Shown here one piece after another: positions 885 through 10,733 of a DNA stretch of 10,733 bases. The stretch covers positions 1-10,733 of IMG/VR virus record IMGVR_UViG_2740892112_000004; one strand, 5' to 3'. How positions within the stretch are numbered: position 1 is the first letter of the stretch; each line of letters starts with the position of its first letter. The translations under genes and the position numbers were made by a program. The stretch comes from a virus (Duplodnaviria; Heunggongvirae; Uroviricota; Caudoviricetes). Under the pieces are notes generated by a model. The model was given only the letters and a program-made list of their open reading frames with translations. It was not told the DNA's origin and ran no database searches.

Positions 885-920
885 TGTGCCCCCATCGCTC
901 TGATAGTCTGGTGTCGTCGG

Positions 921-1115
921 GTCCTTCCTGGAATTATGGCCCGTTACGGGGCGGCGACCTCGCGGTTTTTATCTGTTTATGAAAATTTTTCTGGAAAAAG
1001 CATGTCGGTACTTCTCGAACATAACTATTTGTTTTTAAATAGATACACAATAAAAAGAAACGACACGGTAATCATCTAAAATGGCGATTTATGACGCTTT
1101 CATGTCGTTTCTCAG
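921..1115 (+). other. Lambda-type cos site, copy A: cosQ-like flank, cosN (GGGCGGCGACCT at 949-960), and a cosB with R3/I1/R2/R1-like layout
   Basis: ccgttacgGGGCGGCGACCTcgcggtttttatctgtttatgaaaatttttctgg matches my recollection of the lambda cohesive-end region. R-site-like motifs: catgtcggtacttctc (1001-1016) and catgtcgtttctc (1101-1113) direct, agaaacgacacg (1055-1066) inverted, with an AT-rich IHF-like stretch between. Confidence 0.8.
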
Positions 1116-1139
1116 TTTTGTTCAATAATTGCGCGTCTG

Positions 1140-1682
1140 TTACTCGCCTTTCTTCTGTAGCAACTTTTCCGGTACGTTTCCGGTTGTTTCTTTCAAGTAA
1201 TCAGCCAGTATCTGTGGGAGGTTGTCGGCAACTCTGGCACTGGCATTACAGGCTTTAACCACTTCCCTTTTAAGCCTATCCAGCATGGCGGGGGTAATCT
1301 GTGGGAAGCTCCTTTGCATAGTAAGCGGGAGGCTGTCCATGATTGATGAAATCTGACTCGCCAGCTTTGAAAGCGCGTACAGGCAAAACTCAGTATCAAT
1401 CACGTCACCGCGATCGCGCTCGTTTTTAAGTTCCTGCGCCTCCGCCTGTGCTGTCAGTAATCTGATCCTGACTCGTAAGAGTTCATCATCATCAATATCG
1501 CCTTTGTCGTTTGTAAGCTGGCTAATTGCATTGTTAACCCTATTGTCTATCACGCTGGCAACATCGTAAAACGCCTCACGGCCTTTACGTTCAACGGGAG
1601 TCACTCCCCACTTGTCGAACGCTGTCGCACTTACACGGCAGCTTTTCGCCATGTTTTTTTTGTTCATCAGGTGCGATTTCAT
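1140..1682 (-). CDS. Terminase small subunit, lambda Nu1-like (175-180 aa; start could be 1682 or the Met at 1667)
   Basis: Full-length resemblance to lambda Nu1 as I recall it. N-terminal NKK..A......V.....W............G.E..YD.A.VI and central/C-terminal LTAQAEAQELKNERD ... TEFCLYALSKLASQISSIMDSLPLTMQRSFP. Similar length (Nu1 is 181 aa). No clear SD at either candidate start. Confidence 0.8.
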   Translation of the reverse strand: MKSHLMNKKNMAKSCRVSATAFDKWGVTPVERKGREAFYDVASVIDNRVNNAISQLTNDKGDIDDDELLRVRIRLLTAQAEAQELKNERDRGDVIDTEFCLYALSKLASQISSIMDSLPLTMQRSFPQITPAMLDRLKREVVKACNASARVADNLPQILADYLKETTGNVPEKLLQKKGE

Positions 1683-1683
1683 T

Positions 1684-1721
1684 AATACACCAACTTAATT
1701 ACTGCTTCAGGTTGGTGTATT
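1684..1721. promoter_or_regulatory. 11-bp perfect inverted repeat (AATACACCAAC ... GTTGGTGTATT, 16-bp spacer) abutting the terS start codon
   Basis: Read directly; complementary arms at 1684-1694 and 1711-1721. Confidence 0.35.
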
Positions 1722-1789
1722 GTTTGCATCTTTCCCTTTTCATTCATAAAGATAGAGCAAACAACAAAACCACCACCCCCCTGAAAAGG

Positions 1790-1850
1790 CTCATAAATAG
1801 CGAAAAACCGCGAGGTCGCCGCCCCGTAACGGGTCCATATGCCGGAAAGG
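1790..1850 (-). other. Lambda-type cos site, copy B (inverted relative to copy A): cosQ-like flank plus cosN (minus-strand GGGCGGCGACCT = plus 1813-1824), no recognisable R sites
   Basis: Minus strand reads tatgggtcctttccggcatatggacccgttacgGGGCGGCGACCTcgcggtttttcgctatttatga. About 85% identical to copy A over roughly 70 bp. Sequence beyond that, toward terS, diverges and lacks GTCGTTTC-type motifs. Confidence 0.75.
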
Positions 1851-1856
1851 ACCCAT

Positions 1857-1880
1857 AAAAAAAAGCCGGATTTCTCCGGC
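1857..1880 (-). terminator. Intrinsic terminator after the capsid operon
   Basis: Minus strand: GCCGGA-GAAA-TCCGGC hairpin followed by T8, immediately after the stop of the 1887-2300 ORF. Confidence 0.6.
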
Positions 1881-1886
1881 CTTGTC

Positions 1887-2300
1887 TCAGATGGTTTTCA
1901 GTATGCGATCGATGTCGCCGTCATCGCCCTGGTTTCTGCCATCGTATGCCATGCCAGCTGATACGGCTTGCGGGCTGTGCATGTCCATAAAGTTTTCAAA
2001 GGCTGCAGTAAGTTCCGGCGCAACCTTCGGACGTTCCTGCTCTATGGTCATGCTAAGGATGCTTTTAGCCGTACCAACATCGATACAAGGCACGTTTGCC
2101 ATTGCACGTAACAGCGGCTGATAGTCGCCAGATTCATCAAGCGCCATAATCGCATCAGCGCGCGGCTTGTCCTGCTCTTCCAGTTTGTTTAGTTGATATA
2201 CGGCCTCATAGGTTGATAAACCTCTGTCAGCCATTGCCCGCGCTTCGGCTTTAAATTTACTCGCCAGCGGTAGCGTCATGATGCTTTCATTCGTTGCCAT
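1887..2300 (-). CDS. Hypothetical protein, 137 aa (possibly head or packaging accessory by position)
   Basis: ORF with AGGGGGAA SD 4-5 nt upstream of ATG at 2300; last gene of the capsid operon. No family recognised. Confidence 0.5.
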   Translation of the reverse strand: MATNESIMTLPLASKFKAEARAMADRGLSTYEAVYQLNKLEEQDKPRADAIMALDESGDYQPLLRAMANVPCIDVGTAKSILSMTIEQERPKVAPELTAAFENFMDMHSPQAVSAGMAYDGRNQGDDGDIDRILKTI

Positions 2301-2659: not shown

Positions 2660-3715
2660 TTAACCAATTTTGACGGTAACAAATTTACGAATATCTGCCG
2701 GAACCGGCTGCGGTGCGCTGTGCGTCTGCACGTACTCAATCGCCGGATCGCCGTCCCCAATCCAGTTTTTCGGGTAAAACATGTTTTGCGTTGCGCCCGT
2801 TCTTACTGCGTCCTGATCCATAATCGCACCATAGGCCACCAGCCCTTTATTGTTGGTGTTGCCCAGAACCAGCAAATCAGGCTCAAGGAAATATTTTTCT
2901 GTGCCGTCGCTGTCAGTGTATTTGCCGGAATAGACGATAAGGGCAATATCGCCCAGATAGCCTTTAAAGCTCACCACTTCGCCCAGGTTTTTACAGGCCA
3001 GTTCGGCGGCGGACTCTGAACCACGGGAAAGATCGTACAGCTCACGGAATTTTTTAAAGCTGCGTAACGTGCGCCATACCTCAGCGCCCATAATCATGAC
3101 GTTTGCGGGGCAACCAGCCTGATCAGCATAAAGCTCGATGTCATAGATTGGGTCGTGCATGTCTTTATCCTGCTCGGACCATTTTTTACCCTTGGCCTGC
3201 TCTATGATGCAGTTTTCCGGTATTTTCCAGTCGATTTCATAGCGTTCTATGCCTTCGCCCTCAATGATGTTTTTTCCGGTCGTTATCGCATTCACCGCCA
3301 GCCATTCCACGCGCGCTTTAATGGCGTTTACCTGGCGGCGCATGTTGCCAGTAATCAGGCGCATACGGCGGTAGGTAGGGTCGTTAAGCTGTGCCGGATC
3401 TTCTCCAGCCATGCGCATGATGGTTTTCGTTGGATCGATTTCGTGCTTTGGCTTCATGTAGCCAGGTTTAATTGTGCTGGTTTCGTACCCTTTATCGCGC
3501 TGTACCTGGCTGCCAACCATAGGCGAACAAAACGCCGACATGGTGACTTCTTCAATGTCCAGGGTATCCAGCATGATGTTTTGCGTGCTGAATGTCGCCA
3601 CGTTCGGGAAAAACAGCGTAGTAAACAGAGGGTTGAATTTAAAATCCGCAATATCCCCGCGATTCAGGTACATGAAAAGCTGGTTAGTGTTAAGTGCCGT
3701 TGCTTTGCCTGTCAT
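2660..3715 (-). CDS. Major capsid protein, lambda gpE-like (351 aa)
   Basis: Collinear similarity to lambda gpE as I recall it: FKFNPLF..LFF, PGYMKPKHEIDP, DPTYRRMRLI, VSFKGYLGDIALIVYSGKY, LVLGNT, YPKNW..GDPA, SAP. GGGGGTGA SD. Start overlaps the upstream stop (TAATG). Confidence 0.8.
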   Translation of the reverse strand: MTGKATALNTNQLFMYLNRGDIADFKFNPLFTTLFFPNVATFSTQNIMLDTLDIEEVTMSAFCSPMVGSQVQRDKGYETSTIKPGYMKPKHEIDPTKTIMRMAGEDPAQLNDPTYRRMRLITGNMRRQVNAIKARVEWLAVNAITTGKNIIEGEGIERYEIDWKIPENCIIEQAKGKKWSEQDKDMHDPIYDIELYADQAGCPANVMIMGAEVWRTLRSFKKFRELYDLSRGSESAAELACKNLGEVVSFKGYLGDIALIVYSGKYTDSDGTEKYFLEPDLLVLGNTNNKGLVAYGAIMDQDAVRTGATQNMFYPKNWIGDGDPAIEYVQTHSAPQPVPADIRKFVTVKIG

Positions 3716-3944: not shown

Positions 3945-3980
3945 AAAAAATCATAACTGGATGTTCATCCAGTTATGATT
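3945..3980 (-). terminator. 32-bp palindrome (15-bp perfect arms, 2-bp spacer, 3949-3980) followed on the minus strand by a U-run; terminator/attenuator or operator
   Basis: aatcataactggatg tt catccagttatgatt read directly; the minus-strand hairpin is followed by about 6 T. Confidence 0.45.
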
Positions 3981-4125: not shown

Positions 4126-4131
4126 GGGTAC

Positions 4132-4153
4132 AAAAAAGCCGGATTACTCCGGC
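4132..4153 (-). terminator. Intrinsic terminator immediately after the perC-like gene
   Basis: Minus strand: GCCGGA-GTAA-TCCGGC followed by T6, starting 7 nt after the stop at 4160-4162. Confidence 0.6.
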
Positions 4154-4159
4154 TGTTGA

Positions 4160-4432
4160 TTAGCTGTCTGGGTAATTACGCCATATTTCATCGCTTACAC
4201 CATCTATACCCATTTCAGCATAAGTGCGATCTACTGCCTTTCTCAGGTCTCCGAAGTTATCCGGCGGCTCCGGTGGCTTCTGTGCCTTCCTGGAACATTC
4301 CAGCCGTCGCATCGTAACCTGATGCCGTTCCTTGTCTGTCTCCACCAGCAGCATGACTTCACCCCATCGCGCCGATGCCCTCCGGTAAAAGCCTTTTGCC
4401 TCGAGTTCCTCCGCTATGCGGTCATGTACCAT
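4160..4432 (-). CDS. PerC-family transcriptional regulator-like protein (90 aa; start at internal Met 4432 of the 4160-4552 ORF)
   Basis: MVHDRIAEELEAKGFYRRASARWGEVM fits the PerC-family N-terminal pattern as I recall it. GGGGGTGA SD 4 nt upstream of the 4432 ATG, which lies directly after the ssb stop; the longer ORF would overlap ssb by 110 nt. Confidence 0.5.
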   Translation of the reverse strand: MVHDRIAEELEAKGFYRRASARWGEVMLLVETDKERHQVTMRRLECSRKAQKPPEPPDNFGDLRKAVDRTYAEMGIDGVSDEIWRNYPDS

Positions 4433-4442
4433 CGTCACCCCC

Positions 4443-4853
4443 TCAGAACGGAATATCATCACCGTAGGGGTCATCGTCTCCCGCTGGTGGCTGATTACCC
4501 TGTGTGCCTGTGGTTTTGCGTCTGTTCCCGCCAGGACGTGCCGCACGGGCACTGATTACGCTGTCTGCAATAACCTGATAACCCTGCCGCGTTTCCCCGT
4601 TCTGTCCGGTCCACTGGCTGACCTGCATCGTGCCGGATACGCTGGCAACGTCGCCTTTTTGATGTTTAGCCAGGAAGTCGGCCTGCTTACCAAATGCGAT
4701 GACCGATAGCCATAACGTAGCCTGCCCATCCTGCGCCTGACTACATGGCAACGATACCGCCATACGTGCCAGCGTCATTGGTGTGCCCTTGCTGGTCTGT
4801 TTTACCTGCGGGTCGTCCACCAGCCGCCCGTAAGCTGCTATCTGTGCTGTCAT
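4443..4853 (-). CDS. ssb: Single-stranded DNA-binding protein (136 aa)
   Basis: OB-fold SSB pattern with the hallmark acidic C-terminal tip DDDPYGDDIPF. GGAGAGGTGG SD. ATGA start/stop overlap with the upstream gene. Confidence 0.85.
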   Translation of the reverse strand: MTAQIAAYGRLVDDPQVKQTSKGTPMTLARMAVSLPCSQAQDGQATLWLSVIAFGKQADFLAKHQKGDVASVSGTMQVSQWTGQNGETRQGYQVIADSVISARAARPGGNRRKTTGTQGNQPPAGDDDPYGDDIPF

Positions 4854-5101
4854 GATTCCACCTCTCCGGTTTTAACGTTGATGGTTGTCACCTGTTCAGC
4901 TTCCGCAATCTCCCGCTCTGTCAGCGTGGCAAAATTTGCCGCCGTCGTGGTCATGAATGCGCTTATCAGTTCGGGATGTGCTTTCGCGTATCCTTCCCCC
5001 GCGTGGCGGTCTATCGTTCTGATTGCCACCTTTAAGGCGTGCTCTGTCATGTCTAACGCTTTATATTTTGGCTCTGTTCTGTCTCTGTGTTTTTGAGTCA
5101 T
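4850..5101 (-). CDS. Hypothetical protein, 83 aa (start at internal Met 5101 of the 4850-5233 ORF)
   Basis: GAGGTGG SD before the 5101 ATG. The N-terminal extension of the longer ORF is a translation of the iteron repeats and is probably not coding. Confidence 0.45.
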   Translation of the reverse strand: MTQKHRDRTEPKYKALDMTEHALKVAIRTIDRHAGEGYAKAHPELISAFMTTTAANFATLTEREIAEAEQVTTINVKTGEVES

Positions 5102-5102
5102 T

Positions 5103-5306
5103 TGCCCACCTCTACCCACTTTTTTCGCCCACTTTTTACGTTTTCCCACTTCGTCCAACGTGGGAAATTTGGGATTTATATCATCTTGTTTCATAGGTAT
5201 TTTTTTAGTGCCCACTTTTTGGGATATATACACGTGGGAAAGTGGGTAATTTTGTTAAAATTCCGTTAAATCACCCACCTTTCCCACTTTTAATGCCCAC
5301 TTTTTA
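5103..5306. repeat. Iteron array, putative replication origin: at least 8 direct and 3 inverted copies of (G)CCCAC(TTTTT) with AT-rich spacers
   Basis: Direct copies near 5104, 5115, 5128, 5145, 5211, 5274, 5283, 5296; inverted GTGGGAAA/GTGGGTAA near 5160, 5234, 5242. Lies immediately 3' of the helicase gene. Confidence 0.6.
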
Positions 5307-6701
5307 CAGTGGTCCTACATCATCACCGTCAATGTAGATCACGTCGTCTTTTTCCAGTTTGGCTAACCATCGTTTAAGGTGTTTTGTGTCATACCCCAGC
5401 TTTTTCATATCGTCACGTAACAGCGGGATCGTGCACTTGTCGCCGTGCTGTGTGCGTGAACGTATGCATCCCCATAGCGCGGTATGGTTTTCCGTCTTGT
5501 TGCCTGCCTCCTCGATGCGCTCCAGTTCAACGGGAGGGCGCGGCTTATCCACCACCACCAGCGACGTGATTAACTCCCCGTCAGCGTCGGTAAAAAGCTC
5601 CACCACGCGTAAGTCATATGCGGCTTCTTTGAGTTCCTCCGCGTCCTTCATTTTGGTGCATGAGATAACCAGCGCTTCGCTTCCTGCGTCCTCCCTGCGT
5701 ATCCGGTATTCAGCATCCAGCGAAGCACGAAATGCACTGGAACCGCGCGCGCCTTTCGTCTCATCCTTGCCGGAATGGTGAACCACCAGCACCGTGGCCC
5801 CTGTGCGTCGTTTCAGTTCGTCACAACCACGGATAAACGCCCCCATATCACGGGAATCATTTTCATCATTACCACCAAAGCAACGCGCCAGCGTATCCAG
5901 AATAATCATGCGAACAGGTTTACCCGTTTCCCTCTCCACCTGACGGGCAGCGATAACCATTTCATCAACATCAAGCGGGACCGCCGGAAAGATGGGACGG
6001 TTTACCAGATACAGATTTTTCACCTGCTCACCGTGCACAACCTCCCAGGCTTTTACACGACGCGGAACGCCGATACCGCCTTCACCAACCACATAGAGAA
6101 CAGCGCCATGCGCCACCCTGCGGCCTCCCCACTGACGGCCCGTGGAAACGTGACACGCCCACGAACCCGCAAGGAATGATTTATAGGAACCGCTTGCCCC
6201 GTATATGCTGCATAGCGACGATGCCGGAATAATCCCCTTTACCACGTAATCTAATTGCGTGTCGTATCCGGCAGATCCAACGCTCATCGGTAGCGTGGTT
6301 TTTCGCTGGTGGTGTTCTTCCCCTGGCTTTTTCCCCCGCTCCCGTTCCAGATATTCGCGCCAGTTCTCCCGCTTCTGGCCGTGTATCCCTTCGGGGTAAT
6401 AATTCGCATCAGTTACGCCCGCCGCCGCCAGCTTGTGCGCAATGGCATTAATATTTGATGGCCTGATGTGGCCTGCCTTGTACAGCCGGACACAATAGCG
6501 CCCCTCGTCGATGATTCTCAGGTCTGCCAGTTCATCCAGTTGATCATCAGCCAGCACAATGGGAGGCACATTATCGCCAGCCAGTCGCCCGTCCTGTTCC
6601 TGCCACTGTTTCGCATGTGCCCACGCATCACTACCCGCAAAAATGATGACTTCGGTCATCTTGTCGTAAGGCTGTTTTTTTAAGTTCGGTGCGCTTTTCA
6701 T
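5304..6701 (-). CDS. Replication initiator/helicase, RepA-like (AAA_25-type RecA-fold ATPase), 465 aa
   Basis: Walker A-like GASGSYKS, Walker B-like RMIILDTLARCF, VLVVHHSGK motif typical of RepA/DnaB-like helicases. C-terminal about 80 aa could be a DNA-binding domain (inference). AGGGG SD. ATGA overlap with the upstream ORF. Confidence 0.75.
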   Translation of the reverse strand: MKSAPNLKKQPYDKMTEVIIFAGSDAWAHAKQWQEQDGRLAGDNVPPIVLADDQLDELADLRIIDEGRYCVRLYKAGHIRPSNINAIAHKLAAAGVTDANYYPEGIHGQKRENWREYLERERGKKPGEEHHQRKTTLPMSVGSAGYDTQLDYVVKGIIPASSLCSIYGASGSYKSFLAGSWACHVSTGRQWGGRRVAHGAVLYVVGEGGIGVPRRVKAWEVVHGEQVKNLYLVNRPIFPAVPLDVDEMVIAARQVERETGKPVRMIILDTLARCFGGNDENDSRDMGAFIRGCDELKRRTGATVLVVHHSGKDETKGARGSSAFRASLDAEYRIRREDAGSEALVISCTKMKDAEELKEAAYDLRVVELFTDADGELITSLVVVDKPRPPVELERIEEAGNKTENHTALWGCIRSRTQHGDKCTIPLLRDDMKKLGYDTKHLKRWLAKLEKDDVIYIDGDDVGPL

Positions 6702-6997
6702 TTCTTGCCCCTGAATCCGTTAATCATGGTTTTCAGCTTCTGGATGTTTGCCCGTGCCCTGGCGTTGCTGGTGGGCACGTTATGCGGCGCGGTCTGTACC
6801 AGAGAAAAATCACGCCGGAACTGATAAACAGGCATCACGCAATCATATTCGTAACCTTCACGGCGGTAAGTTACGCACCGTCCCGCCACGCCCTTAATCA
6901 TTACCGTGCCGCCGTACTGGTCGCGGTAAATATCACCGCGCATAAATTTAGGGTGAGTGTTGCCACTGGCAGTTAAGCCAGAATATTTAAGTTTCAT
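6698..6997 (-). CDS. Hypothetical protein, 99 aa
   Basis: ORF translationally coupled to the helicase gene (ATGA overlap); GGAGAA SD. No family recognised. Confidence 0.5.
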   Translation of the reverse strand: MKLKYSGLTASGNTHPKFMRGDIYRDQYGGTVMIKGVAGRCVTYRREGYEYDCVMPVYQFRRDFSLVQTAPHNVPTSNARARANIQKLKTMINGFRGKK

Positions 6998-7002
6998 TAT
7001 TT

Positions 7003-7236
7003 TTATTCTCCGGTGTGCTGTTCGTTATATCTGTCGTGCAATGTCTCTATTTCCTGCAACTCATTTATTACAGGCTCAAGAAGCGTTATTAATGATGTAA
7101 TAATCCGCGTTTTTTTTGCATTACGTTCATTATCGCCAAAGGATTCAAGGCACATCCGCAATATTTCGTACATACCTTCAGCGTAAGCAAGGGCACTAAA
7201 TGCGCGGTCTATTGTTTCAAGATAAATATCACGCAT
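7003..7236 (-). CDS. Hypothetical protein, 77 aa, net acidic
   Basis: ORF starting ATGCGTGAT (MRD), overlapping the upstream stop by 8 nt; GAGGA SD. Confidence 0.45.
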   Translation of the reverse strand: MRDIYLETIDRAFSALAYAEGMYEILRMCLESFGDNERNAKKTRIITSLITLLEPVINELQEIETLHDRYNEQHTGE

Positions 7237-7462
7237 GGCTTACATCCTCAGGAAATTTTCTTCTGTAACGCGCCTCTGCCACATATTCCGCATAATCGGC
7301 GGCGATATTCAGTACATCAAGTCCCGTTGATTTATATTCTTTCGTGGAAAGTAAGAAAAAAGCCGCTCTAATAAGTTCTGGCATTGACGAAAGCGCATCA
7401 GCCGCATCATCAGGAACGCCGGAAAATTCCTGTTTCAGGGAATTAAAACGATCATCACGCAT
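7229..7462 (-). CDS. Hypothetical protein, about 77 aa (start uncertain: Met at 7462 with poly-G SD, or 7489)
   Basis: ORF 7229-7489. The internal ATGCGTGAT start at 7462 overlaps the upstream stop by 8 nt and follows a G8 run on the minus strand. Confidence 0.4.
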   Translation of the reverse strand: MRDDRFNSLKQEFSGVPDDAADALSSMPELIRAAFFLLSTKEYKSTGLDVLNIAADYAEYVAEARYRRKFPEDVSHA

Positions 7463-7694
7463 AACCCCCCCCATTTTCACAATCAGCAATCAGGATAGCT
7501 TTGGCCTCATTCAGCGCCGTATCAGCACTAAATTGCATGACAGCCAGTGAGTGAGGAACGAAAGCACCGGCATATTCTGTTTCGCTGGTGGCGTGCTTAT
7601 GTGCCCTGTCCGCGATAACAGAAATATCAATCAGCGCGTGCATCAGCGTTTTGATGGCTTCGGCGGCTGCGTCCGGTGTGGTTTTATTGTGCAT
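7455..7694 (-). CDS. Hypothetical protein, 79 aa
   Basis: ORF with AGGGGA SD 7 nt upstream of ATG at 7694. The C-terminal GGG codons lie in the C8/G8 tract. Confidence 0.45.
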   Translation of the reverse strand: MHNKTTPDAAAEAIKTLMHALIDISVIADRAHKHATSETEYAGAFVPHSLAVMQFSADTALNEAKAILIADCENGGGYA

Positions 7695-7896
7695 AAAGCA
7701 TCCCCTGAATATTCGTGTTAATCATTCCGGCACGTTTTGTGATTTCCTGTAATGATTCCCTTGTGGCGACAATTGCTTCATCTGGTAAGTGGTAATTACA
7801 CACCACGCGACCTTTATCCACATTGACCAGTAGCTGCCCTGTGAATTTCTCACGAAACTGAATGCGGTTAAGGTCAGTAAGTGACAGATTAATCAT
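7684..7896 (-). CDS. Hypothetical protein, 70 aa (start at internal Met 7896 of the 7684-7938 ORF)
   Basis: Very good AGGAGGT SD 6 nt upstream of the 7896 ATG. Confidence 0.5.
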   Translation of the reverse strand: MINLSLTDLNRIQFREKFTGQLLVNVDKGRVVCNYHLPDEAIVATRESLQEITKRAGMINTNIQGMLYAQ

Positions 7897-8086
7897 GGCG
7901 CACCTCCTGACGAATACGGGCGGCAAATACAGCAACACAACCGGACGGGCAACGGTTACGCGCTTCGCGTTCCGTCCAGGCGGTTACGTGGATGATTTGA
8001 GATTCTCCGGCACTCAGTGCCAGAAAACGCCACACAAAGGCCGTTTGTGTGTGTACAAGGTGTGGTATATGATTTACAGCAACCAT
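7889..8086 (-). CDS. Hypothetical protein, 65 aa, first ORF of the long operon (start at internal Met 8086 of the 7889-8161 ORF)
   Basis: TAGGAG SD 6 nt upstream of the 8086 ATG; downstream of the predicted promoter and leader hairpin. Confidence 0.45.
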   Translation of the reverse strand: MVAVNHIPHLVHTQTAFVWRFLALSAGESQIIHVTAWTEREARNRCPSGCVAVFAARIRQEVRHD

Positions 8087-8117
8087 AACGGCTCCTAGTT
8101 TACGTTGTTGGTTAGAA

Positions 8118-8158
8118 GCCCTGCGAGTGGTAACGACACTTGCGGGGCTTTGTCTTTT
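8118..8158 (+). terminator. Strong 12-bp stem-loop; plus-strand terminator-like (followed by TTTGTCTTTT) and also a 5'-leader hairpin of the minus-strand operon transcript
   Basis: GCCCTGCGAGTG, 7-nt loop, CACTTGCGGGGC (two G-U pairs as RNA), T-rich tract on the plus strand. Confidence 0.35.
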
Positions 8159-8179
8159 CATCGATTACCTTGATAAAGG

Positions 8180-8259
8180 TGTCAGCCACTATATTAGTAA
8201 CGGGTGTCAGCCACGTCAATAGTGTTTTTCCGTTTTCTTGTGTGTATACTGTCAGCCAC
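8180..8259. promoter_or_regulatory. Three direct repeats (G)GTGTCAGCCAC; candidate operator sites in a divergent promoter region
   Basis: TGTCAGCCAC at 8180-8189, 8205-8214 and 8250-8259. The first overlaps the predicted minus-strand transcription start, the second sits in the promoter spacer, the third lies just downstream of a plus-strand TATACT (8245-8250). Confidence 0.5.
8191..8219 (-). promoter_or_regulatory. Sigma70-like promoter for the long minus-strand operon (-35 TTGACG, 17-bp spacer, -10 TAATAT)
   Basis: Minus strand reads TTGACG (plus 8214-8219), a 17-nt spacer, then TAATAT (plus 8191-8196). Predicted start near 8184. Confidence 0.5.
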
Positions 8260-8280
8260 CTAATAACGAGGAAATCAGAT

Positions 8281-8460
8281 ATGGCAACAAAAGCAGTTAA
8301 TGCAAAATCCAAAAAGCTTGAGGCTCGAGTACCACACGCAATAGCTGATGCTGTAGAAAATTTAAAGGAAGATGGCGAAAGTACAGGGCAATTTATCGTT
8401 TCGGCACTTGAAGGCGAGATCAAACGCCGCCAGCGCCGCAAGGCCAAAGAATCAGAATAA
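8281..8460 (+). CDS. Small putative DNA-binding protein, ribbon-helix-helix-like (59 aa; start at internal Met of the 8140-8460 ORF)
   Basis: GAGGAAA SD upstream of ATG 8281. KKLEARVPHAIADAVENL...GESTGQFIVSALEGEI resembles a beta-strand/helix/turn/helix RHH pattern; basic C-terminal tail. Fold assignment is tentative. Confidence 0.45.
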   Translation: MATKAVNAKSKKLEARVPHAIADAVENLKEDGESTGQFIVSALEGEIKRRQRRKAKESE

Positions 8461-8517
8461 TCACTATCAGCGCCGTGGTGTGAGGTATTACGGCGCATTG
8501 CTATGCAGGACAACACA

Positions 8518-8691
8518 ATGACCGATAAAGAATTGACCAAAACATTATCACCGGCACGGAAAAGACGGCGCAGAAAGATAGAGCATGAATCAGAAAGATT
8601 CGCGTCATGTGCTTTTGCCCTTGAGCAATTCCTTAAAGAGTACAGGGAAAAGCGCTCATTGCAGGTATGGCAACGAACTGAACCAGACTGA
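8518..8691 (+). CDS. Hypothetical small basic protein (57 aa; start at 8518, or 8503)
   Basis: AGGA SD 7 nt upstream of ATG 8518. Contains an ARKRRRRK tract. Followed by the terminator at 8787-8814. Confidence 0.4.
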   Translation: MTDKELTKTLSPARKRRRRKIEHESERFASCAFALEQFLKEYREKRSLQVWQRTEPD

Positions 8692-8960: not shown

Positions 8961-9149
8961 TTAATGAACTGCCTTGCAGCTATCCTTCCAGGCCAGAACC
9001 TCGGATAAAGACCAGCCAACGGAACGACCGCCAAGTTTACGACGTGATGGGAATTGTCCGGCCTTTTCCAGGCGGTAGCGACACGTACGGCTAAGGCCGG
9101 TTAGTTTTTCGCATTCTTTTTCACGTATAAACCGATCAGTGCTTAACAC
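8961..9149 (-). CDS. alpA: AlpA-family DNA-binding protein (prophage CP4-57-type regulator/excisionase-like), 62 aa
   Basis: Helix-turn-helix pattern typical of AlpA/Vis proteins (LTGLSRTCRYRLEKAGQFPSRRKLGGRSVGWSLSEVLAW). AAGGGGGGG SD. Lies immediately downstream of int on the same strand. Confidence 0.8.
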   Translation of the reverse strand: MLSTDRFIREKECEKLTGLSRTCRYRLEKAGQFPSRRKLGGRSVGWSLSEVLAWKDSCKAVH

Positions 9150-9515: not shown

Positions 9516-10733
9516 TTATTTTCTTCTGGCTACTGGTAGCGTGGTTACGTTTTCATGTGTTCCCGCCAGTATCCCTAACCGCTCCGTCCACATATCCAGC
9601 GCATTGCGTTTAGCATCCAGATAACGGGAATGATTATAAACTCGCTGCATTCCTGGCATCTGGTGGCCTGTAAGCTGCTCCACGACATGCGGATCAACGC
9701 CTAAATCGTTCAGCATGGTTGTAAAGGTGCGCCGGATGTCATGCAGTGACCAGTGAGGATGATTAAGCCTCCTGTGCGCTAATCTTCCATACTGCGATAC
9801 GCTGGCCTCCTGTTTCACTTCCCCCAGCAATAAGCCCGTGTGCCTGTTCTGCTCCACCAGCTGCGTGACGAACGGCAGGATCGCTTCCGGTATGGGCCGG
9901 AATATTGCGACCTTCGTTTTGCTGTGCTCCTTCGGAACGGTCCATAGCATTTCCGTAAAATCCCACTCCCCGATCTCCGATAACCTCAGTTCTACCGTTC
10001 TGGCTCCGAAGACAATCAGGAGGCGGATTAACGCGACGTAGTAAGGGGAGAATATTTTTTTGTCCAGTGCCTGCAATAATTCGCCAAGTTCTTTGTTACT
10101 TAAGACACGTTCGCTTATATCCGGTTTTTTCCCAACGTCCGCCACGTTCAGATCGTCCAGAACGTTGCTGATTGCATAGCGCCGCCTACGGCAGAACTTA
10201 AGCGCCTGTTTGCACGCCTGTAGCACGAATCCGGCAGTAACAGGCGTTCGCTTTGCCACCTGGTCAAAACAGGCCAGCCAGTGCCGTAGCTCGCATTTAT
10301 CCAGCGGCATAGCACCAATCTGCTGTATTACGTGATTATTAAGTCGCCTTTTCAGGGCGATATAATCCACGCGGTTTTCCTTTACGTAATACTCAAGCCA
10401 GTAGGTGAGCGCATCGCCAACCGTTACCGGCTTTAACGCTTCCTGTACGGTGTAATTAAGCTCATGACGTGGATTTTTCCCCTCTGCCAGCCATGCGCGA
10501 CACTGGGCGGCTTTTTCCCTGGCTGATTTCAGGCTCAGATCAGGATAACTTCCCAGCTTAATGCGTTCGGGTCGTGTCTCCCTTCCCGTTCCGGCCCTGT
10601 ATGTGAAATACCAGGTCAATTTCCCTGATGTTAAATATTTCACGCTCAGGTTTCCGCCATCACTATAAAACGTGTTTTTCTCCGCTGGCTTACCATGAAG
10701 TTTCCTTAGCAAGGTATCGCTCAGTTTGTTCAT
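9516..10733 (-). CDS. int: Tyrosine site-specific integrase, P4-type (405 aa)
   Basis: N-terminal arm-binding-type region (DGGNLSVKYLTSGKLTWYFTYR). Catalytic-domain pattern with conserved Arg (FGARTVELRLSE), His/Arg box (WSLHDIRRTF) and C-terminal Tyr region (RVYNHSRY). ATG is the last three bases of the window on the minus strand. Confidence 0.9.
   Translation of the reverse strand: MNKLSDTLLRKLHGKPAEKNTFYSDGGNLSVKYLTSGKLTWYFTYRAGTGRETRPERIKLGSYPDLSLKSAREKAAQCRAWLAEGKNPRHELNYTVQEALKPVTVGDALTYWLEYYVKENRVDYIALKRRLNNHVIQQIGAMPLDKCELRHWLACFDQVAKRTPVTAGFVLQACKQALKFCRRRRYAISNVLDDLNVADVGKKPDISERVLSNKELGELLQALDKKIFSPYYVALIRLLIVFGARTVELRLSEIGEWDFTEMLWTVPKEHSKTKVAIFRPIPEAILPFVTQLVEQNRHTGLLLGEVKQEASVSQYGRLAHRRLNHPHWSLHDIRRTFTTMLNDLGVDPHVVEQLTGHQMPGMQRVYNHSRYLDAKRNALDMWTERLGILAGTHENVTTLPVARRK

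Follow-up and report, generated by a model that had tools for sequence, protein, structure and literature searches.

The stretch of DNA analyzed here (the window: the whole 10,733 nucleotides of IMG/VR record IMGVR_UViG_2740892112_000004) is almost the whole of a phage-inducible chromosomal island (PICI) of the EcCICFT073 family, a satellite with lambda-type cohesive-end (cos) sites, inserted in tqsA. Bases 1 to 165 are the 5' end of that gene, and in Escherichia coli STEC17-183, where the region is 99.5% identical, tqsA is split by the element. All real genes of the window lie on the minus strand, and the hallmarks of a Gram-negative cos PICI are present, namely, a tyrosine integrase, AlpA, the island's own replication module, a single gene direction, a length of about 10 to 12 kb, and a specific chromosomal site. 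The late region is syntenic with that of the prototype, EcCICFT073 (positions 4960 to 8655 of locus L002), which contains in order PerC, an E-like protein (c1499), a D-like protein (c1500), a 137-amino-acid (aa) gene, a specificity gene, and a 93-aa gene, and gene sizes also match; the EcCICFT073 homologue of the 93-aa gene, here called orf93, occupies L002 8374 to 8655. At the position of the specificity gene lies terS, encoding a small terminase subunit, bracketed by two oppositely oriented cos sites, copy A downstream of the gene and copy B upstream of it (Table 1). We consider it fairly probable that the cassette is bounded by two complete cos sites that differ in specificity, copy B being the island's own primary packaging site and copy A an accessory site of helper phage type. 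Relatives were drawn from IMG/VR (80 loci, designated by L numbers), and inverted junctions were sought in complete E. coli genomes, about 490 to 500 of 5,426 of which, including O157:H7 strains, contain the TerS-type region.

Table 1. Features of the island in window coordinates; bp distances are counted from cosN, and fractions are matching positions
Feature	Positions	Strand	Remarks
cosQ/R4-equivalent of copy A (CGGGTCCTTCCT)	918-929	+	Alignment to annotated phage 21 R4, match not scored; GGGTCCT at 919-925
cosN of copy A	949-960	+	Identical to lambda and 21; EcCICFT073 cos2 equivalent
I2-equivalent of copy A (TATGAAAATTTTTCT)	978-992	+	bp 30-44; 14/15 vs phage 21 I2
R3 of copy A (AAGCATGTCGGTACTT)	998-1013	+	bp 50-65; 14/16 vs phage 21 R3
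I1 of copy A (integration host factor [IHF] site equivalent)	1020-1034	+	bp 72-86; 13/15 vs phage 21 I1
R2 of copy A (opposite in direction to R3 and R1)	1055-1070	-	bp 107-122; 10/16 vs phage 21
R1 of copy A (TTTCATGTCGTTTCTC)	1098-1113	+	bp 150-165; 12/16 vs phage 21
Cassette between the cosN sites (both cosB regions and terS)	961-1812		Inverted in some natural relatives
R1 of copy B, AGTTGGTGTATTAATG (AGTTGGTGTATTAATGA in the feature list)	1695-1679	-	bp 130-146; overlaps terS start
R2 of copy B, inverted (minus-strand sequence CAATACACCAACCTGA)	1722-1707	element +	bp 103-118
R3 region of copy B, GGTGGTGGTTTTGTTGTTTG	1777-1758	-	Starts at bp 48, the position of N15 R3 (bp 48-59)
cosN of copy B	1813-1824	-	EcCICFT073 cos1 equivalent; canonical position upstream of terS
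cosQ/R4-equivalent of copy B (TGGGTCCTTTCC)	1844-1855	-	GGGTCCT at 1854-1848
Intrinsic-terminator-like hairpin	1862-1883	-	9-bp stem, then T run; between scaffold-like gene and copy B
orf93, 93 aa	603-884	-	Conserved flanking gene downstream of cassette; phrog_1561, function unknown
terS, 180 aa, Nu1 family	1140-1682	-	Pfam Phage_Nu1 2.3e-23; phrog_57 3e-53
Nu3/scaffold-like gene	1887-2300	-	Conserved flank upstream of cassette
D-like decoration protein	2313-2648	-
Lambda E-like capsid protein	2660-3715	-
PerC-family transcriptional activator	4160-4552	-	Pfam 1.6e-44
Single-stranded DNA-binding protein (SSB)		-	Between AAA_25 helicase and PerC in listed order
AAA_25 helicase, 465 aa	5304-6701	-
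DUF4222 protein		-	Between AlpA and AAA_25 helicase in listed order
AlpA regulator	8961-9149	-
Integrase (Arm-DNA-bind_3 and Phage_integrase)	9516-10733	-	Domain matches

The 12-nucleotide lambda cohesive-end sequence GGGCGGCGACCT (cosN) occurs once on each strand within an inverted repeat around terS, the arms of which (919 to 989 and 1784 to 1854, 71 nucleotides) are 82% complementary and share a perfect core of 31 bp (940 to 970 and 1803 to 1833). In each copy the cosQ core GGGTCCT stands exactly 23 nucleotides before cosN. An earlier note on this DNA, made from its letters alone, had placed two lambda-type cosN sites in opposite orientations around a Nu1-like gene and had judged them too diverged for a recent duplication; its coordinates and orientation are right, terS is a member of the Nu1 family, and the pair is not a recent duplication. 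Its placing of copy B in the canonical position upstream of terS, with a cosQ-like flank, also holds, as do the features expected of a functional cosN: the cosQ core is at the right distance in both copies, and the flanking symmetry is present in copy A. The opposed sites that it thought unexpected are not so for the EcCICFT073 family, two cos sites having been published for it in 2018 (Fillol-Salom et al., ISME J, PMC6092414). In EcCICFT073 itself, cosN lies upstream of rppA on the plus strand (L002 7559 to 7570) and downstream on the minus strand (8298 to 8309), and both sequences are printed in Fig. S1A of Fillol-Salom et al. (2019, Mol Cell, PMC6739421), the upstream, canonical site as cos1 and the downstream site as cos2. 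Since the positions around the specificity gene are the same, copy B is the equivalent of cos1 and copy A that of cos2.

Copy A is a helper-type cos, and alignment of its subsites assigns it to phage 21 specificity. Every annotated cos subsite of phage 21 recurs in copy A at an equal distance from cosN, although R2 and R1 are nearer to those of PhiR5_1 than to those of phage 21; the annotated cos of phage 21 and that of CFT073 prophage 4 are identical. Copy A aligns with lambda at 75% identity over 125 bp and with PhiR5_1 at 83% over 150 bp, and three of the five R-pattern matches in the window cluster there in +, -, + order. Whereas in phage 21 and lambda R1 is followed by Nu1, the phage-like DNA of copy A stops at about bp 190, the position of the Nu1 ATG, and there abuts the convergent terS at its stop codon. 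The description of copy A as a full lambda-style cos (R3, I1, inverted R2, and R1) abutting the 3' end of a convergent terS is thus upheld, the alignment with phage cos DNA extending throughout. The specificity of the second site appears to vary from island to island: to judge by cosB type, it is 21-type, PhiR12-type, Monarch/N15-type, or one of at least two more. The cos2 site of EcCICFT073 and the true cos of PhiR12 phages have 93.3% identity over 179 bp, and in Rpp islands with 759-bp spacing (L007 type), cos2 contains the exact N15 R3 GAGGTTGTTGTTTAAT together with an inverted R2 and an R1, a Monarch-type complex cosB.

Copy B, which the earlier note took to be devoid of a cosB, holds three elements that are related to one another and follow each other in the lambda arrangement of R3, inverted R2, and R1, and the claim that only one of the two sites has a cosB is not confirmed. 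The 11-bp inverted repeat, regarded as part of an unrelated replacement sequence, is the R2/R1 pair of copy B, R1 forming its right arm; in lambda, too, R2 and R1 form an inverted repeat. Taken in the forward direction, R2 of copy B agrees at 15 of 16 positions with R2 of the Monarch/N15-type cos of L007, and among 39 TerS-type relatives, its ACACCAACCTGAA core is invariant and the R1 arm is variable. A terminator or attenuator hairpin before terS was considered for this repeat and rejected: the left arm is conserved and the right arm is not, and the pair fits the lambda-type R2/R1 layout. With N15 and Monarch, copy B shares a putative R3 that is T/G-rich and triplet-periodic from bp 48, and its inverted R2 and direct R1 are arranged as in the complex Monarch-type cosB, but the R sequences are variants (GGTGGT repeats and GGTTGGTGTATT, compared with GAGGTTGTTGTT). 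N15 R3 is GAGGTTGTTGTT at bp 48 to 59, and the window has GGTGGTGGT at bp 48 to 56 followed by TTTTGTTGTTTG, alike in position and triplet periodicity but different in sequence. The composition of this G-run/(GGT)n tract (1758 to 1782) varies among relatives, although the downstream TTTTGTTGTTTG core begins at the same place, bp 59, in 38 of the 39 TerS-type loci, which suggests a constraint on spacing. An IHF site was not identified in the cosB of copy B. We conclude that copy B has a predicted cosB of N15/Monarch type, the R elements of which are putative binding sites for TerS.

The protein encoded between the two sites is in keeping with such a role. The best phage relative of the island TerS is N15 gp1 (46% identity). 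Its DNA-binding domain (residues 6 to 55) is 56% identical to that of N15 gp1, with which it has the pattern ..AFDKWGV.PVE..GRE.F.DV.SV.DNR in common, and 28 to 34% identical to the lambda, 21-type, PhiR5_1, and phi80 counterparts. The C-terminal half is not N15-like; residues 96 to 166 are 56% identical to PhiR5_1 Nu1, 52% identical to PhiR12_1, and 35 to 41% identical to the corresponding regions of other phages, and the island, unlike N15, is a satellite that encodes no large terminase subunit (TerL). In lambda, the C-terminal part of Nu1 contains the TerL-binding end. TerS therefore has the appearance of a domain mosaic, in which a foreign recognition domain is joined to a helper-compatible, predicted TerL-binding domain, and the N15/Monarch-type cosB of copy B matches the N15-like DNA-binding domain of the protein. 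The protein is not an Rpp by the comparisons made: it matches Pfam Phage_Nu1, is 13 to 23% identical to RppA by domain, and exceeds the Rpp size range of 139 to 154 aa. A phmmer search with TerS against the PDB gave chance matches only, with no Rpp (RppC) or Nu1 structure among them, and membership in Rpp was accordingly discarded. The window island is, on the similarity of its specificity protein, a member of the TerS-type subfamily; TerS-encoding E. coli PICIs were mentioned in passing in 2018 (PMC6092414).

Comparison of relatives separates copy A from TerS. In locus L014, TerS is identical to that of the window at 180 of 180 residues, yet the R sites of cos2 are unrelated (TCAGATCC type), and near-identical TerS proteins occur with three types of cos2. 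Intact copy A is missing from 10 of the 33 TerS-type loci in IMG/VR, in six of which orf93 starts 10 nucleotides after the terS stop codon, and copy B is kept in all 33; the corresponding E. coli figure (230) is inflated by pieces joined across cos2, and single-piece rows H207 to H209 alone are safe. The cosB of copy A is hence probably not the cognate site of the island TerS, and copy A is dispensable. Relatives with a single intact cos, named by the earlier note as an observation that would count against a functional pair, do exist, but the site they dispense with is A and not B. Among related observations, in L032 and L057, unrelated DNA takes the place of cos2 downstream of terS; it includes a degenerate stretch resembling cos (GCTCCCGCCCCGTGGCAGGG) as well as, at the start of the orf93 homologue, an (ATGACC)5 repeat. 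In L069 (3595 to 4614), the order after the scaffold-like gene is PhiR12-type cos, TerS of 169 aa, and N terminus of a gpA-like large terminase, and the cassette may carry a whole terminase. In L080 (approximately 4150 to 4600), the frame after a PhiR12-type cos has a beginning like that of PhiR12 TerS (VATQTEVAR), followed by sequence resembling the middle part of RppA (SSESDEYSSEETEHRF); this apparent recombinant may bear on the origin of Rpp.

These comparisons bear directly on the assignment of roles in the earlier note, according to which copy A, the sole owner of a cosB, would be the initiation site for the island TerS and copy B a termination-only or decoy site. Copy A does possess the most obvious lambda-style R3-I1-R2-R1 set, and N15-type TerS is promiscuous towards lambda cosB, but copy B has its own predicted set of R3, R2, and R1 and is homologous to cos1, which is essential by experiment; the R sites of copy A differ wholly next to an identical TerS, about 30% of TerS-type relatives lack copy A and none lacks copy B, and copy A lies downstream of terS, pointing away from the canonical cos-terS arrangement. 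We give this proposal hardly any credence, and the roles appear to be the reverse of those suggested.

The experimental record for EcCICFT073 provides the functional background. Both cloned cos sites permit plasmid transfer by lambda and phi80; with respect to transfer of the island, deletion of cos1 reduces it, deletion of cos2 raises it, and deletion of both abolishes it (PMC6092414; PMC6739421). The cosB of cos1 is the only route by which RppA stimulates packaging (PMC6739421). The gain on deletion of cos2 supports a different explanation, in which copy A is a relic, useless or slightly harmful, that was taken up as the cassette was acquired or reshuffled by recombination with helper cos regions and is retained only because loss is slow. 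The absence, truncation, or replacement of cos2 in 10 of 33 TerS-type loci, the near identity of cos2 to real phage cos DNA (93.3%), suggestive of recent capture, and gene conversion in the arms all accord with such a history. Against it, the subsites of copy A, where present, are intact at phage spacing (cosQ, cosN, I2, R3, I1, R2, and R1) in at least four specificity types, and cos2 is kept by all Rpp-type loci with enough sequence. Furthermore, cassettes without a gene hold just two phage-type cos sites, an arrangement that makes sense only if the sites are used. We regard the relic explanation as unlikely, though it deserves to be taken seriously.

Several observations also weigh against the assignment of an own site to copy B and an accessory helper site to copy A. 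The sole measured effect of cos2 in EcCICFT073 is negative, transfer by lambda and phi80 having been lowered by it (PMC6092414; PMC6739421), and the TerS-encoding islands IHE3034 and 18098, examined in 2018, transferred poorly after mitomycin C induction (PMC6092414). The resident helper of CFT073 is of 21 type and does not match the R12-type cos2 of its island. N15 TerS packages lambda DNA despite a dissimilar R3 (Feiss et al., 2015, PMC4669245; PMC9026076), so that binding specificity is not safely readable from sequence, and the island TerS might use copy A as well. The R3 of copy B resembles that of N15 but has (GGT)n in place of (GTT)n, and GTTGTT lies 6 to 9 bp further out. Finally, copy B of the window is the exception to the spacing constraint described above: its core is at bp 56, one GGT unit (3 bp) fewer than in 38 relatives, which could affect packaging efficiency; 3-bp changes in spacing are harmful in lambda. 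We nevertheless favor two sites of different specificity, with copy B as the primary one.

The cassette between the cosN sites is found in both orientations in nature. Among the IMG/VR loci, the gene-less cassette, with 524-bp spacing, occurs in one orientation in four loci and in the other in five; L053 and L054 have identical direct flanks, and their internal 536 bp is 99.6% identical only if one is reverse complemented. A tree of the flanks, from a MAFFT alignment, interleaves the two orientation states. Synthetic inverted junctions were constructed and searched for in complete E. coli genomes: for the TerS type, the inverted junction was present in 5 genomes (99 to 100% of the length matched) and the normal junction in 495, and for the RppA type, the numbers were 15 (12 listed at 100% identity and coverage) and 69, respectively. 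Annotation agrees, in that terS of 2014C-4587 (near yejO) and PM4-5 (in tqsA) is on the strand opposite to the orf93, scaffold-like, D-like, and E-like genes, and in WP4-S17-ESBL-08, at a position beside phoQ like that in CFT073, the scaffold-like gene and orf93 enclose an rppA of opposite strand, the protein of which has the same accession as in CFT073. Inversion isomers are thus known for gene-less, TerS, and RppA cassettes, and the suggestion in the earlier note that the pair might be the footprint of an inversion has substance. An assembly artifact was considered and rejected, as the identical core is just 25 to 31 bp, isomers were found repeatedly, in complete genomes independent of one another and at differing chromosomal locations, and synthetic junctions match at 100% identity.

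In all inversions, the two distinct cosQ flanks are unmoved and everything inward of cosN is flipped, which places the exchange within the identical core of 25 to 31 bp. About 14 loci (L011 to L015, L023, L025, L026, L041, L048 to L051, and L059, with forward cos) have a cosQ flank of copy A type at the cos1 position, indicative of gene conversion between the cos arms; in these, the 30 bp beside cosN on the cosQ side is identical in both arms. Precise isomers in three cassette types and at several chromosomal sites, together with the terminator just upstream of copy B, might be taken to signify a programmed DNA switch, flipping expression of terS or rpp or the direction of packaging in the manner of phase variation. 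We find this very improbable: no resolvase or invertase domain was found in any open reading frame scanned, the only recombinase being the island integrase, and both cos sites are complete in either state. Moreover, the inverted form is rare with a gene inside (5 against 495 genomes for TerS and 15 against 69 for RppA), and a ratio near 1:1 is seen only in the gene-less cassette, a pattern that fits chance recombination filtered by selection and suggests that selection acts on gene orientation. Most simply, the inversions are a by-product of RecA or helper Red recombination in the cosN core; possibly, the terminase cuts both sites and the cohesive ends rejoin, and both routes predict exchange within the core. 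A bolder version, which we hold to be doubtful, is a packaging-specificity cassette that is flippable and swappable without a recombinase, with terminase as the enzyme of inversion and exchange and the helper-type cos selected for a second helper specificity. If terminase did cut both cosN sites, the excised cassette would have two identical cohesive ends and could reanneal either way or be replaced by another cassette.

Given two sites of different specificity, packaging may be pictured as follows. On helper induction, the island TerS would pair with the helper TerL through its helper-like C terminus and, by binding the R elements of copy B, would place TerL on the adjacent cosN, which the helper enzyme should be able to cut, as cosQ and cosN are helper-like. 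Packaging would then proceed through terS and around the concatemer to the cosQ-cosN of the next copy B, and competition by TerS for TerL would disfavor helper DNA, a task accomplished by Rpp in EcCICFT073 via another route. Copy A, in turn, may be usable directly by the unmodified terminase of a 21-type helper, in the opposite packaging direction, thereby offering a second recognition route and a possible benefit in helper range. The strongest argument that phage-type sites can function unaided comes from the gene-less cassettes, which carry only a Monarch-type and an R12-type cos. The inverted orientation may have a simple reason: two direct cos sites would allow terminase to start at one and end at the other, deleting the cassette. 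In lambda, termination needs cosQ and cosN read in one direction and not cosB, as reported in work on cos duplications from the Feiss laboratory. As a side effect, the identical core would act as a recombination handle, through which the cassette is occasionally flipped or swapped.

Other parts of the window merit brief description. The complete head module of a capsid-forming PICI (TerL, portal, protease, capsid, and connectors) was not found, the window genes of this kind being only E-like, D-like, Nu3-like, and TerS. A scan of positions 550 to 2000 revealed no sigma-70-like promoter, and a scan of species-representative genomes with the scaffold-like protein gave no relative. The islands of STEC17-183 and CFT073 (L001 and L002) encode a 584-aa "DNA primase family protein" in contrast to the 465-aa AAA_25 helicase of the window; as this difference exists despite a cos region 99.5% identical to that of STEC17-183, the islands are mosaics of exchangeable modules. 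Short repeats with GTCAC/GTCGC (ttgtcacggcgtgtcactggttgtcactctccgtcacggtatgtcgctact) at 548 to 600, between the island end and orf93, could be protein-binding iterons (e.g., arm-type or replication sites), and a perfect 15-bp palindrome at 3949 to 3980 (AATCATAACTGGATG and CATCCAGTTATGATT, 2-nucleotide gap), upstream of the capsid operon, could be an operator. A 25-nucleotide terminator-like sequence (AAAAAAGCCGGATT.CTCCGGC) is present in two copies, 92% identical, at 1856 to 1880 after the scaffold-like gene and at 4129 to 4153 near the PerC gene. The PerC-family activator may matter for virulence regulation in the Shiga toxin-producing and enteropathogenic E. coli hosts of such islands.

Why islands of the EcCICFT073 family have two cos sites is a question put in the literature (Fillol-Salom et al., PMC6092414/PMC6739421), and the scheme outlined above offers a testable answer in three parts: one site would be tuned to the island's specificity protein, the other would be a copy of a helper phage cos, and inversion of the sites relative to each other would be necessary to survive packaging. 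A large group of E. coli islands has a chimeric TerS and not Rpp, as the Gram-negative cos counterpart of the TerS strategy seen in pathogenicity islands from Staphylococcus aureus (SaPIs), and the cos pair appears to drive the inversion and the exchange that the packaging module undergoes in nature. Such findings are relevant to the range of helpers, to how PerC-carrying islands spread among pathogenic E. coli, and to designing cos-based delivery vectors.

Of known systems, EcCICFT073 is the closest, with the same family and gene order (int, alpA, replication, ssb, perC, E-like, D-like, scaffold-like, cassette, and orf93) and with two lambda-type cosN sites alike in position and relative orientation around the specificity gene, the upstream site having an island-specific cosB. 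It differs in that its 144-aa Rpp pairs with the helper TerS, whereas the window encodes a full-length 180-aa TerS of the Nu1 family with its own predicted TerL-binding end; its upstream cosB is ACCACCACC, in place of (GGT)n and GGTTGGTGTATT in copy B, and its second site is PhiR12-type, in place of 21-type. The two-cos architecture of the family was already known, and the window is a TerS-type variant of it. In published work, no recognizable phage cosB was reported in either EcCICFT073 site and inversion isomers were not described (PMC6092414; PMC6739421), the word "inverted" being absent from the 2019 main text (PMC6739421), and a treatment of cos1 alone in Rpp islands proposed a single R3 at bp 48 to 65 (Murialdo and Feiss, 2022, PMC9026076). 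Judging from the literature open to search, three points are new: that the second site can be typed as a helper phage cos of variable specificity, that an N15/Monarch-like cosB is paired with a chimeric TerS, and that a cos-bounded cassette undergoes inversion in nature. Further afield, the mechanism proposed for the window resembles that of SaPI TerS-S, in which the satellite supplies a TerS that works with the helper TerL and is specific for a site of the satellite itself, and cos SaPIs such as SaPIbov5 are satellites with a copy of the helper cos, like copy A; SaPIbov4 has been cited as having two putative cos sites (PMC6092414; PMC6739421). The SaPI TerS, however, works in headful (pac) packaging and in Gram-positive hosts, whereas the window would join both strategies in one cos-type cassette. 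The Mu G segment with Gin, Salmonella Hin, and the shufflons likewise have a short segment, bounded by inverted repeats, that occurs in both orientations, but those systems have a dedicated invertase, whereas here there is none, the repeats are cos sites, and exchange takes place in the cosN core.

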